Positions 22,784 through 28,341 of a stretch of DNA of 64,000 bases are shown here, piece after piece. The first letter of the stretch is position 1, and every line of letters starts with the position of its first letter. The DNA is from Candidatus Iainarchaeum sp. (lineage in GTDB: Archaea > Iainarchaeota > Iainarchaeia > Iainarchaeales > Iainarchaeaceae). The notes under the pieces are model-generated. The model searched no databases. It was not told where the DNA came from and was given only the letters and a program-made list of their open reading frames with translations. The position numbers and the translations under genes were made by a program. The DNA lies in NCBI GenBank assembly GCA_043812975.1, contig JBDRLP010000027.1, positions 1-64,000 of the forward strand. Reading direction: 5' to 3'.

Positions 22784-22839
22784 CTTTTCTCGCTGAAGAA
22801 ACCTTAAAAAACCTCTTCTTAGGCAATATTTAGTCAAAT

Positions 22840-22913
22840 GGGCCCATAGCTCAGTCTGGTAGAGCAGCGGACTTTTAATCCGCGTGTCGAGGGTTCAAAT
22901 CCCTCTGGGCTCG
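22840..22913 (+). tRNA. tRNA-Lys (TTT)
   Basis: Full cloverleaf, anticodon loop CTTTTAA, G2.U71 pair, discriminator G73. Confidence 0.96.
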
Positions 22914-22988
22914 TTCAGTACTTTTTTCTTTCTCTTTGAAAGAGAAAGAAAAACCTACACTAAAAAGAAAGAGAAAAAGGCGTGTATT

Positions 22989-25331
22989 TTGTCTGAAGAA
23001 AAAGAAGTTTCAGTATGGTCAGAAAAGGTAGCTGATGATGTTATTGTTAGACATAAAGAACCTTATGTTGTTGAGGGCATGTGGACGCCAAGCGGGTTCT
23101 TTCACATCGGAAACGCGAGGCCGGAAGTGTTTACTCCGTATGCTGTAAAAAGAGCTATTCAGGATAAAGGAAAAAAAGTCACACAGAATTTTATTTTAGA
23201 TGATTTTGATGCAGTGAGGAAAATTCCTGGAGGATTAGGAATCAAAAAAGAAGACGAAGATAAATATCTTGGTTTTCCAATTGCCACTGCTCCGTCTCCT
23301 TTGCCTGGTTTCAAAACATGGGCGGATGCATTTGTTTCTCAGTTGAAAAAGTATGCTCCTGAATTCGGTCTTGACTTGAATTTTATTTCTGCTTTCCAAA
23401 CTTACAAAGAAGGAAAATTTAATGAGTTGATAAAATTCAGTATTGAAAATTCTAAGGAAATTGTGAAGGTTTGGACAAAAGTTGCAGGTTCTGAAAAAGA
23501 AGAAGATTTTGTCCCTTTGCAAGTCCTTTGTGAAAAGTGTAAAAAAATTTATTATACAAAAGTTCTTGGTTTTGAAAACGATTTAGTTGAATATGAATGC
23601 GAATGTGGTCAGAAAGGAAAAGTTTCCCCGTATGATGGTAATGCAAAATTACATTGGAGAGTACATTGGGTTTGCCACTGGATTCTCCACAAAGTGGATT
23701 TTGAATCAGGGGGAAAGGATCACTTTTCTAAAGGCGGTTCTGTTGATGTCGGGCAGGCATTGATTAAGGAAGTTTTCAAAAAAGAACCCCCTGTGCAGGT
23801 GCCAACTGAGTTTGTTCAGTTAGCTGGAGCAAAAATGGCAGGTTCCATTGGAAATGTTATTGATCTTGAATCTTGGTTAAAAGTAGCGCCGCCAGAACTT
23901 TTCAGGTTCATGAATTTTTCTTATAAACCTTACACTGTAATTGAGTTCTCATTCAAAAATAACAGTTTTGTTCTTTTGAACGATCGATTTGAAAGAGCCG
24001 AAAGAATTTATTTTGGTTTCGAAAAAGCAGAAAACGAAAAAATGACTCAGAAATTAAAGAAGATTTATGAATTTTCAGTAATAGGCACTCCGTCAAAAAG
24101 ATTAGTGCAGCTTCCGTTCTCAACAAGTATTTTACTTTCACAGATTCTGGATTTTGAAAATAATTTTGATGAAAGTTTAGATAAAATAAAAGAAGTATCA
24201 AAAATTCCTGAAGATTTGACTAACGAAGAAAAGGAAAAAATAAAAGAAAAACTAAAAAGAACTAAACACTGGGTCGAGAATTACGCTGAGGAATCATTCA
24301 GATTGAGTTTTGTTGAAGAATACGATTCTGGATTATTAGGCAGATTAGATGAAAAAATTGTTTCTGTGCTTACTCAGATAAACAAAAATCTTCTAAGTGC
24401 AAAAACCCAGGAGGAGATTCAGCAATTAATTTTTGATTCTTCAAAGGAAAACAACATTTCTCCAAAAGATTCTTTTAGAGTTATTTATTTGGCTTTAATT
24501 GGCAAGGAAAAGGGGCCTAAAGTAGGTTCTCTTGTTCCAGTTTTCGGAAAAGAAAAAGTAATGAAAAGAATTGAAGAAGTAATTTCTCAGCCAAAACCAA
24601 AAACTGCGGTTAGAGAAAAAAAGGACTCTAGTTTGCCAGGGGCTGAAGAACTTTCTAAAGTTTTCAATTTTGAGGTTTCAGAAAAAGTAAAAGAAAATTT
24701 TCCAAACCTCCGACTAGGAATTTTAGTTCTGAAGAATATTGCTAATGCAAAGCAAAGTCCTGAAATTTCTAAGTTGCTCAGAAAAAAAGAATCCGAATTA
24801 AGAAAAGACATTGAAGGAAAAGAACTTTCTTCAGTTGAAAATCTGAAACTCTGGAGAGAAGCTTACTCAAGTTTTGGCGGAAAACCAAAAAAATACAAGC
24901 CTTCAGTTGAGGCACTTGTAAAAAGAGTAGTTAAAGGAGAAGAACTTCCAAGCATCAATCTTTTAGTTGACATTTACAATTACATTTCTATAAAATATTT
25001 ACTTCCTGCCGGAGGGGACGATTTGGATAAAATTGAGGGCAAAGTTTCTCTTGATTATGCAACCGGAAAAGAGAACTTTTTGATGATTGGGTCTAATGAA
25101 AACGATGCCCCGAAAGAAGGGGAGATTGTTTACAAAGATTCCAAAGAAGTTTTGTGCAGACGTTGGAATTGGAGAGAATGTGACAAAACCAAGTTAACTG
25201 AAGAAACCAAAAATGCAGTAATTTATATTGAAAGTCTCAGTTCAGCAGATGATTTGGATAAAGCACTTGCTGAACTTGCGGAACTTGTTGAAAAGTACTG
25301 TAATGCCAAAACAAGCAAGTTTGTGGTTTAA
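22989..25331 (+). CDS. lysS: Class I lysine--tRNA ligase fused to a C-terminal B3/4 (PheRS-beta editing-like) domain
   Basis: TPSGFFHIGN (HIGH-like), CxxC...CxC zinc knuckle, KLHWRVHW, GKDH, KMAGS (KMSSS-like) and GPK motifs. After ~24660 there is a B3/4 domain (WREAYSSFG..P..YKPSVEAL.KR, INLLVDIYN.IS, D.DKIEG, EIVYKD, CRRWNWRE). Likely TTG start at 22989. Confidence 0.93.
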   Translation: MSEEKEVSVWSEKVADDVIVRHKEPYVVEGMWTPSGFFHIGNARPEVFTPYAVKRAIQDKGKKVTQNFILDDFDAVRKIPGGLGIKKEDEDKYLGFPIATAPSPLPGFKTWADAFVSQLKKYAPEFGLDLNFISAFQTYKEGKFNELIKFSIENSKEIVKVWTKVAGSEKEEDFVPLQVLCEKCKKIYYTKVLGFENDLVEYECECGQKGKVSPYDGNAKLHWRVHWVCHWILHKVDFESGGKDHFSKGGSVDVGQALIKEVFKKEPPVQVPTEFVQLAGAKMAGSIGNVIDLESWLKVAPPELFRFMNFSYKPYTVIEFSFKNNSFVLLNDRFERAERIYFGFEKAENEKMTQKLKKIYEFSVIGTPSKRLVQLPFSTSILLSQILDFENNFDESLDKIKEVSKIPEDLTNEEKEKIKEKLKRTKHWVENYAEESFRLSFVEEYDSGLLGRLDEKIVSVLTQINKNLLSAKTQEEIQQLIFDSSKENNISPKDSFRVIYLALIGKEKGPKVGSLVPVFGKEKVMKRIEEVISQPKPKTAVREKKDSSLPGAEELSKVFNFEVSEKVKENFPNLRLGILVLKNIANAKQSPEISKLLRKKESELRKDIEGKELSSVENLKLWREAYSSFGGKPKKYKPSVEALVKRVVKGEELPSINLLVDIYNYISIKYLLPAGGDDLDKIEGKVSLDYATGKENFLMIGSNENDAPKEGEIVYKDSKEVLCRRWNWRECDKTKLTEETKNAVIYIESLSSADDLDKALAELAELVEKYCNAKTSKFVV

Positions 25332-25376: not shown

Positions 25377-25450
25377 GGGCCCATAGCTCAGTCTGGTAGA
25401 GCAGCGGACTCTTAATCCGCGTGTCGAGGGTTCAAATCCCTCTGGGCTCG
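25377..25450 (+). tRNA. tRNA-Lys (CTT)
   Basis: Identical to the upstream tRNA-Lys except at the first anticodon base (loop CTCTTAA). Confidence 0.96.
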
Positions 25451-25452
25451 CA

Positions 25453-27432: not shown

Positions 27433-28341
27433 ATGAAAAAATCAATCAAGACATCTTTTGGTTCTATCTTGTTGAAAGAACTTGAAACTGTCACGATTCC
27501 AGATTTACCTAGTCAATCTATTAATTTAAGTTTAAAATCTTTTTTAGCAGATGAACATTTACAATTTAATGTGATTAGCCAAACTAAAGATTACTATTTG
27601 TTAAGCTTGGCAAACAGAATCACAACTCTTCCAAAATATCTGACTCCTAAATTAGCTTATTTTATAGGTTATTTCTATGGAGACGGAGGGTTAAAAAATA
27701 TTGAAAAATCTTTCAAAATCACAGGGCGATTTGATCATAAATTCAAAATTGCAGATGAATTTTTGGTTCAAATTAAACAAATTAAATTTCTTTTTGAACA
27801 TTTGTTTGGTCTTGAAATCCCAGTTAGATTTGAACGAATTCATAAAGGAGAAAGAACTCATTATATAGAAATGACAAATAAAATAATTTACTTGTTTTTA
27901 ACAAAAGTTTTTGGTTTGCCTTGTGGGAAAAAAGATAATAAATTAAACACCCCCCAAATTATTACAAATTCTTCAACTGAACTTCAACAATGGTTTCTGA
28001 GAGGTTTATTTGATGCTGATGGGGATACCAGAGCAGTAGAAGCAGGATTCAAATCTCAATCGAGGGTTAAAATTAGGATGAAACAATTGCATTTTATTTC
28101 TGAGTTAAAACCTTTTATTGAATCTGTCTTTAAAGTTTCAGTTAACGGCCCGTATTTCGATTCTGAGGGGGATTCTGCTTATATTCAGGTTGAAAGACAA
28201 GCTGACATAATTAAACTTTCTGGATTGAATTTGTTTATTCACCCGATAAAAAAGTGGCGATTAAAGAAAACTAGAGAATTTTTGTTGAAAAGGAAGAATT
28301 TAAAAGTAATTGCCGCCGAAACTATTACAATGGGAACGTAG
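27433..28341 (+). CDS. Free-standing two-motif LAGLIDADG homing endonuclease
   Basis: LAYFIGYFYGDGG and FLRGLFDADGD motifs; no intein splicing motifs; stop codon lies inside tRNA-Phe. Confidence 0.88.
   Translation: MKKSIKTSFGSILLKELETVTIPDLPSQSINLSLKSFLADEHLQFNVISQTKDYYLLSLANRITTLPKYLTPKLAYFIGYFYGDGGLKNIEKSFKITGRFDHKFKIADEFLVQIKQIKFLFEHLFGLEIPVRFERIHKGERTHYIEMTNKIIYLFLTKVFGLPCGKKDNKLNTPQIITNSSTELQQWFLRGLFDADGDTRAVEAGFKSQSRVKIRMKQLHFISELKPFIESVFKVSVNGPYFDSEGDSAYIQVERQADIIKLSGLNLFIHPIKKWRLKKTREFLLKRKNLKVIAAETITMGT

Follow-up and report, generated by a model that had tools for sequence, protein, structure and literature searches.

In a stretch of 64,000 nucleotides from Candidatus Iainarchaeum sp. 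(assembly GCA_043812975.1, contig JBDRLP010000027.1, positions 1-64,000 of the forward strand; hereafter the window), a single gene at 22989-25331 was found to encode a complete class I lysyl-tRNA synthetase (LysRS-I) joined in frame, via a short linker, to a complete B3/4 domain of the CtdA type. On balance we favour the view that the tethered CtdA-type domain would carry out post-transfer editing of tRNA-Lys mischarged by this enzyme, the likeliest targets being arginine or analogues of arginine and lysine. The identity of the domain is clear, its pocket is conserved, the fusion is real and recurs in other genomes, and the protein is the only LysRS found in its genome. We prefer an editing function because the CtdA family is a proven aminoacyl-tRNA hydrolase whose validated residues are strictly conserved here, because the domain has repeatedly been joined to the enzymes for the two long basic amino acids, because fused and free forms do not co-occur in a sample of 201 genomes, because unfused operon forms (lysS-B3/4 and argS-B3/4) exist, and because the B3/4 domain is still attached after replacement of the LysRS body. 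From these relationships we infer that the domain would be hydrolytic, that it would act on tRNA-Lys and what its substrate may be.

Gene structure and identity of the C-terminal domain

Translation of the gene gave an uninterrupted frame of 780 amino acids (aa) on the forward strand from a TTG start at 22989. Between the upstream tRNA gene, which ends at 22914, and the conserved N-terminal tryptophan, this is the sole ATG, GTG or TTG in the frame. The gene, its parts and the flanking tRNA genes are as follows.

22839-22914, + strand: tRNA-Lys gene (anticodon UUU; ARAGORN), ending 74 bases before the LysRS start
22989-25331, + strand: whole gene, class I LysRS, linker and CtdA-type B3/4 domain, 780 aa; stop codon at 25329-25331
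23013-24077, + strand: LysRS-I catalytic (Rossmann) domain, aa 9-363 (Pfam tRNA-synt_1f, E 4.5e-89; Foldseek 1irx_A, target template modelling (TM) score 0.84)
24345-24584, + strand: C-terminal part of the helical anticodon-binding region, aa 453-532 (Pfam Anticodon_2, E 4.9e-09)
24588-24662, + strand: linker, aa 534-558 (SQPKPKTAVREKKDSSLPGAEELSK...), 25 aa, Lys/Pro-rich and predicted to be flexible; no domain match
24663-25328, + strand: CtdA-type B3/4 domain, aa 559-780, 222 aa (envelope of a hidden Markov model (HMM), phmmer and Foldseek)
25377-25451, + strand: tRNA-Lys gene (anticodon CUU; ARAGORN), beginning 45 bases after the stop codon

The LysRS-I body is complete (aa 9-533), with HIGN at aa 39-42 and KMAGS at aa 282-286, and the NCBIfam model TIGR00467 (lysS_arch, 515 positions) matched aa 10-530 with 392.1 bits against a cut-off of 147.55. 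The Pfam B3_4 match covered aa 622-753 (E 4.8e-29; 101.6 bits against a cut-off of 29.3), and these Pfam and TIGR00467 scores are far above chance. The initial annotation, written from the sequence alone, had proposed a single-frame fusion at these positions, consisting of a complete LysRS-I ending near MKRIEEVIS, a Pro/Lys linker and a full B3/4 domain of about 220 aa. Each part was borne out: MKRIEEVIS occupies aa 525-533 of the translation, the strings quoted for the B3/4 domain were located at aa 622-630 (WREAYSSFG), 638-646 (PSVEALVKR), 656-664 (INLLVDIYN) and 723-730 (CRRWNWRE), and the three families expected of such a protein (tRNA-synt_1f, Anticodon_2 and B3_4) were all found by Pfam.

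The linker is the least conserved part of the protein (0-55% identity to relatives); its DNA is in frame, free of stop codons and contains an A7 run. In an AlphaFold2 model of the whole protein, for which 14 fused homologues were aligned, the mean predicted local distance difference test score (pLDDT) was 81.5 and the predicted TM score 0.69; the pLDDT was below 50 at aa 540-544, 64-71 over aa 531-550 and 65-96 in the block of the B3/4 domain. A promoter and terminator scan gave nothing usable, its consensus being bacterial and the host an archaeon.

In comparison with the LysRS-I of P. horikoshii (1IRX; TIGR00467), the N-terminal 533 aa are a complete equivalent, HIGN motif included, whereas the window enzyme carries 247 extra residues at its C-terminus. 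Its body belongs to a divergent LysRS-I subtype with the loop KM(S/A)GSxGN, in which the second loop lysine is usually V, I or K. The KMSKS-like loop of the window protein (aa 282-289; nt 23832-23855) reads KMAGSIGN. Among the 119 nearest relatives, 106 of which have a recognisable motif, the residue after GS is V in 62, K in 14 and I in 4, so the second lysine of the loop is not conserved in this LysRS-I lineage.

By all criteria of sequence and fold, the C-terminal domain belongs to the CtdA-1 kind and not to the PheRS-beta kind. An HMM built from free-standing relatives spans aa 559-780, that is, the full length of a stand-alone CtdA-like protein. A phmmer search of the domain against all PDB sequences returned 9f7e_A (E 1e-27, 100 bits) and 9mkl_A (E 5.6e-26) as the sole matches at E <= 0.01, with no PheRS chain at that threshold. 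With Foldseek, the C-terminal part of the model matched CtdA with target TM scores of 0.83 (9f7e_A, 230 columns) and 0.81 (9mkl), and the CtdA-specific helical insert (alpha2-alpha4) is present in the model as helices at aa 591-608, 617-627 and 639-648; PheRS-beta chains were far weaker (E about 1e-7, target TM 0.17-0.18). Of the two relatives that the initial annotation had named for the domain, CtdA therefore proved to be closer than PheT.

The domain thus shares with the CtdA proteins of P. canavaninivorans (9F7E) and S. enterica (9MKL; PMC10018355, PMC12449066) the same full-length fold, helical insert included, and the same size of about 220-230 aa. CtdA is, however, a free-standing canavanyl-tRNA(Arg) deacylase, while the domain described here is fused in frame, and to LysRS rather than ArgRS. 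The B3/4 domain of PheRS-beta, which hydrolyses Tyr-tRNA(Phe), belongs to the same superfamily and Pfam family (PF03483) and offers an analogy in placing a hydrolytic site within a synthetase, but it is much more distant in sequence and fold, and the active-site residues of PheRS and CtdA differ except for one Asn (PMC12449066). The domain next to the B3/4 in the window protein is LysRS, not B1/2 and B5, and the same genome encodes an ordinary PheRS-beta of its own.

Residues of the S. enterica CtdA pocket (PMC12449066) were mapped onto the window protein via the phmmer alignment. N105, G116 and C166 are kept as N664, G675 and C723, and Q173 corresponds to E730, a tolerated change since the active CtdA of C. 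perfringens has E at this position; the remaining two of the six positions differ, E118 being D677 and I189 being Y746. The importance of N105, G116, C166 and Q173 was proven by mutagenesis in S. enterica CtdA, in which N105A and C166G are inactivating (PMC12449066). To judge by this predicted pocket, the tethered deacylase domain is probably catalytically intact. Neither canavanine nor tRNA-Arg is implied for it. Archaeal members of the family have been described as a divergent CtdA-2 group without C166 (PMC12449066); the host here, a DPANN-type archaeon, differs from them in having the C166 equivalent.

The same positions were compared across 203 aligned domains grouped by fusion partner. 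N, G, C and E are each present in 100% of the 26 domains fused to LysRS-I, in 97%, 97%, 88% and 88% of the 36 fused to class II LysRS (LysRS-II), and in 96%, 96%, 76% and 80% (with a further 16% Q) of the 25 fused to ArgRS. These four residues and the surrounding CRRWNWRE motif are invariant in all 14 aligned full-length fused proteins. Domains fused to Lys and Arg enzymes share C, N and E at positions 723, 727 and 730, whereas of the three TyrRS-fused rows two have T at 723 and all three have V at 727 and Q at 730; the pocket thus varies with the synthetase partner, Lys and Arg partners forming one type. Only in the LysRS-I-fused group is the E118 position occupied by D (92%) and the I189 position by Y (96%), where the ArgRS-fused domains have E (88%) and V or I (88%), respectively; S749 (100%) and F697 (100%) are likewise peculiar to this group. 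D677 and Y746 are a signature of the clade fused C-terminally to LysRS-I. No pocket signature common to LysRS-I- and LysRS-II-fused domains and absent from ArgRS-fused domains was found among the 203; the sole, weak candidate is A625, present in 96% and 88% of the two LysRS groups, whereas the ArgRS-fused domains are mixed there (I, A and V).

Recurrence of the fusion and history of the locus

In order to place the gene in its phylum, 201 genomes were searched with the B3/4 domain. Frames of fused size (730-1044 aa; E <= 6.1e-73) were found in 20, the window's own genome included, and in all 19 of the others the domain lies in one frame with a LysRS, of class I in 18 and of class II in one. 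Frames of free-standing size were found in 13 genomes, and none of the 201 had both forms. The architecture, then, is not peculiar to this assembly: it was present in 19 of 19 relatives checked and in further metagenome proteins. Apart from G136 (see below), eight genomes of the family lack the fusion; no LysRS-I at all was found in these, which points to incomplete assemblies.

The initial annotation had considered that an assembly join or a lost stop codon might have produced the frame, with relatives carrying two separate genes. To this we attach practically no weight. One locus (L032) does have two separate genes, only 5 bases apart, and the linker DNA has its A7 run; but a single fused frame in all 19 fetched phylum genomes, together with independent metagenome proteins, excludes an artefact, and the frame itself is continuous. 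Read coverage across the linker, likewise raised at the outset, was obtained in part: run X1 (share 0.18) gave one identical 151-base contig at 24518-24668, which crosses the junction, and nothing elsewhere. Its support is weak, as it is a single piece and may derive from the source sample.

The fused protein is the cell's housekeeping LysRS, the only one found in the genome (1.24 Mb, 94.5% complete). PF01921 gave no other strong match, and the matches to PF00152 are AspRS, not LysRS-II. This AspRS, of bacterial type, is split over the end of contig C2 and the start of contig C65 of this genome (G000; L004, L005); the two sequences overlap, the split is an assembly break and not biological, and an open reading frame (ORF) for a GatA-like amidase follows. 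The ArgRS of the same genome is unfused (a 566-aa frame), and no other copy of the CtdA-1 type was found in the genome. Its MetRS (G000:C41, L002 1-1956, +) has a B3/4 domain at its C-terminal end (Pfam B3_4, E 6.5e-24). This one is of a more remote subtype, sharing about 33% identity with that on LysRS, and again has CtdA 9f7e as its nearest PDB entry (E 9.5e-10). Weaker B3/4 matches in the phylum sample include 26 in frames of 708-818 aa; identity as MetRS was checked for that of G000 alone.

In the window the gene order is aTrm56, SerRS, tRNA-Lys(UUU), the LysRS-B3/4 fusion, tRNA-Lys(CUU), GlnA, Lrp and a LAGLIDADG-like ORF. A tRNA-Lys gene adjoins the fused gene in 12 of the 19 relatives' loci, and also in L006, and both tRNA-Lys genes stand beside it in L006, L086, L087, L089, L090 and L093. 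A lysS gene lying between its cognate tRNA genes could be co-transcribed or co-regulated with them.

The relative G034 (= L006/L087), of the same genus, has the same gene order from SerRS to GlnA. Identity between the window and G034 is 87-90% for SerRS, 76% for GlnA and 64% for the B3/4 domain, and only 31% for the LysRS body. The two bodies are of different LysRS-I subtypes, with WTPSGFFHIGN and KMAGSIGN in the window and GITPSGVVHIGN and KMSSSKGN in G034. The window body has its nearest relatives among unfused proteins 530-550 aa in length (identity up to 73%), and the same type of body ('type B') occurs in three other fused genes (among them L088 and L104 (= P0218)). By these comparisons, the LysRS body has been replaced within a syntenic locus, with the fused architecture still in place afterwards. 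Replacement of the body alone and of the whole gene are not separated by the B3/4 tree, in which the window domain falls in a polytomy; approximately unbiased (AU) tests did not reject one clade uniting all four domains that sit on 'type B' bodies (p 0.215), or a pair formed by the window domain and L088 (p 0.274).

The LAGLIDADG-like ORF of the window (27433-28341, +) lies about 2 kb downstream of lysS. Another such ORF (L108 2690-3352) lies directly downstream of an unfused lysS in G136, of the same genus. The presence of a homing-endonuclease-like gene beside a replaced locus may not be coincidence.

Synthetase partners of CtdA-type domains

Beyond the phylum, a phmmer search of 1.84 billion representatives gave 3519 matches, 283 of them at E <= 1e-30; most of the best 150 were free-standing and about 230-240 aa long. 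A domain search limited to proteins of 429-1365 aa gave 64 matches, nearly all of which were synthetases. In total, 212 collected proteins were classed by BLAST against exemplars, and Pfam confirmed the class of 39 long ones. The numbers below are not frequencies, as the sample is biased towards the query.

Free-standing B3/4: 111 of 212
B3/4 then ArgRS: 24
LysRS-II then B3/4: 21
B3/4 then LysRS-II: 16
LysRS-I then B3/4: 16, two of which are the window protein itself
B3/4 then LysRS-I: 11
B3/4 then TyrRS: 3
MetRS then B3/4: 1
Other architectures: 9

LysRS-I and LysRS-II have unrelated folds. Each of the six architectures with Lys, Arg and Tyr enzymes requires a separate fusion event. The clade of domains fused to the C-terminus of LysRS-I (15 rows) includes that of a class II LysRS, P0009 (= L091), with a FastTree support of 98 and an IQ-TREE support of 99 in the Shimodaira-Hasegawa-like approximate likelihood ratio test (SH-aLRT); the domain has thus remained with a lysine enzyme while the enzyme class changed. 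The ArgRS-fused P0022 falls among the domains fused to the N-terminus of LysRS-I.

In species-representative genomes, a pattern scan turned up 80 loci, comprising 70 free-standing forms, eight of B3/4-LysRS-II (L046, L052, L066, L071, L076, L077, L078 and L083), one of LysRS-II-B3/4 in a Woesearchaeota record and one of LysRS-I-B3/4. The record titles of the eight are Chlamydiae, Chlamydia sp., Simkaniaceae, Parachlamydiales, Neptunochlamydia and Verrucomicrobiae, with L066 given as 'uncultured bacterium'; the titled records are of intracellular or host-associated bacteria. Unfused neighbours were also seen. In L032, a 233-aa B3/4 gene begins 5 bases after lysS (532 aa) on the same strand, a spacing which supports a functional link rather than an artefact; in L049, a B3/4 gene begins 11 bases after argS, and in L053 and L060 a free-standing B3/4 gene has a convergent LysRS-I neighbour.

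Several single proteins carry further domains. One 1044-aa frame (L092, G008:C28) combines LysRS-I, B3/4 and an AlaX-like domain (the C-terminal part of tRNA-synt_2c with tRNA_SAD), and P0007 (1010 aa) carries its AlaX-like part at the N-terminus. CtdA-like domains were also found fused to an amidase (P0105) and to a GNAT acetyltransferase (P0178), with TyrRS and a YbaK-type tRNA_edit domain (P0191), and in tandem on one ArgRS (P0066, two copies). For P0065, the precomputed Pfam families PF07508 and PF13408 suggest a recombinase-like partner.

The distribution of partners bears on an alternative in which LysRS is a mere carrier: the domain would keep a CtdA-like job on another tRNA, such as removing an arginine analogue from tRNA-Arg, with the tether serving merely to co-express it, to stabilise it or to position it at the translation machinery. 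The initial annotation had named cis editing of tRNA-Lys and trans editing of another tRNA as two possibilities, and these are still the two main readings. We consider the carrier model unlikely, although several observations speak for it. The N, G, C and E of the pocket are as in CtdA and in ArgRS-fused domains, P0022 groups with LysRS-I-fused domains, relatives' LysRS can bear an AlaX-like domain, of a type known to act on tRNA-Ala (L092, P0007), and, with ArgRS unfused and no other CtdA-1-type copy in the genome, any CtdA-like service for tRNA-Arg would need this domain. Against it stand the repeated fusion to both unrelated LysRS classes, at both ends, the retention of the domain with lysine when the enzyme class changed (P0009/L091), the lysS-B3/4 operon form in L032, and the pocket changes proper to the LysRS-I clade (D677 and Y746) in comparison with ArgRS-fused domains. 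Canavanine is moreover a legume product (PMC12449066), to which these uncultured archaea would have no obvious exposure.

A second alternative, weaker than the carrier model and in our judgement quite improbable, is that the B3/4 domain is a non-catalytic appendage, an extra module for binding the tRNA 3' end or for dimerisation which would raise tRNA affinity or dimerise the normally monomeric LysRS-I. Many MetRS carry a tRNA-binding dimerisation domain at their C-terminus. In keeping with such a role, the MetRS of this genome itself ends in a distant B3/4 domain, the domain has been attached to at least five synthetase families, and S. enterica CtdA is a dimer (PMC12449066). On the other hand, the whole free-standing enzyme has been retained, not a fragment, and the validated residues are conserved, with CRRWNWRE, in 14 of 14 full-length proteins and, as the four residues, throughout the LysRS-I-fused group, a strictness beyond the needs of fold maintenance.

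Proposed editing of tRNA-Lys and its significance

In the editing function that we favour, LysRS would attach an amino acid other than lysine to tRNA-Lys, and the 3' end of the product would be caught by the nearby B3/4 pocket, within reach by way of the flexible 25-residue tether. The ester bond would then be hydrolysed before the elongation factor takes the tRNA, while Lys-tRNA-Lys would be excluded from the pocket. The likeliest targets would be long basic amino acids, namely arginine or guanidino, oxa or thia analogues of arginine and lysine. Jakubowski reportedly found in 1999 that the LysRS of E. coli is able to place arginine on tRNA-Lys. The CtdA pocket takes arginine as well as canavanine, and the wild-type enzyme has weak hydrolytic activity on Arg-tRNA-Arg (PMC12449066). 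Arginine being non-cognate for LysRS, its misacylation of tRNA-Lys and this property of the pocket together make Arg-tRNA-Lys, or tRNA-Lys carrying one of the guanidino, oxa or thia analogues, the leading candidate.

Ornithine, which was among the substrates suggested in the initial annotation, is an unlikely one for a class I enzyme: in the excerpts of PMC8001834 consulted, tRNA-Lys is charged with ornithine by LysRS2 and not by LysRS1.

Several observations weigh against an editing function. Class I LysRS discriminates well against thialysine. Together with the selectivity reported for class I LysRS, in that it does not charge ornithine (PMC8001834, same excerpts), this would leave little obvious for an editing domain to correct. 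The mode of tRNA recognition by CtdA is not established (PMC12449066). In its four key residues the pocket matches canavanine-specific CtdA and the ArgRS-fused domains, so that these residues give no pointer to tRNA-Lys over tRNA-Arg, and the AlaX-type domain on the same LysRS (L092, P0007) would fit LysRS as a mere carrier. The domain is also far from universal: 151 of the 201 phylum genomes (about three quarters) gave no match at all, 118 of the 120 listed nearest relatives of the window body are without B3_4, and G136 (80% complete) has an unfused 537-aa LysRS behind tRNA-Lys(UUU), with no CtdA-like match in the genome at E <= 1e-10. The B3/4 domain can be lost and is not indispensable.

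Neither class of LysRS, nor ArgRS, is regarded as having a post-transfer editing domain. We know of no described LysRS of either class that has one. In the excerpts of PMC11580382 consulted, AARS Online likewise lists no editing domain for LysRS. Deacylases that exist both free-standing and attached to synthetases have precedents in the AlaX domain of AlaRS and ThrRS and the INS/YbaK family in ProRS (PMC12449066 and the same excerpts of PMC11580382); those pairings are textbook and assayed, whereas CtdA-type domains on LysRS, ArgRS, TyrRS or MetRS are known here from sequence. The initial annotation did not recognise the architecture for class I LysRS, and we likewise found no paper describing it: in the full-text literature, with supplements and subscription journals outside its scope, no description of a B3/4 fusion to LysRS, ArgRS, TyrRS or MetRS was found. 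The words fused, fusion, LysRS and lysyl have no occurrence in any of the CtdA papers PMC12449066, PMC12268091 and PMC10018355, although fused members might appear in Supplementary Table S2 and Fig. S14 of PMC12449066, and a Nat Chem 2026 paper on deacylase mining covers the AlaX family (PMC13149037). The domains are thus known, and their combination is undescribed and functionally suggestive.

A wider idea, which we put forward tentatively and with rather less confidence than the editing function itself, is that CtdA-type domains may form a modular, mobile proofreading cassette that has been plugged repeatedly onto synthetases long held not to require post-transfer editing (LysRS of both classes, ArgRS, TyrRS and MetRS) in host-dependent, amino-acid-scavenging microbes (DPANN archaea, bacteria of the candidate phyla radiation (CPR) and environmental Chlamydiae). 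On LysRS, such a cassette might act as a second sieve that removes arginine, or modified or analogue basic amino acids derived from the host, from tRNA-Lys, with D677 and Y746 marking the new specificity.

A natural fusion of this kind allows the full-length and truncated enzymes to be compared directly, and may supply parts for genetic-code engineering with lysine analogues. CtdA was described in 2023, solely as a stand-alone defence against canavanine, and its authors have raised other roles for the family (PMC12449066). If the fusion is active, it would provide a first lead to threats against the fidelity of lysine codons, and would extend the CtdA family beyond canavanine.

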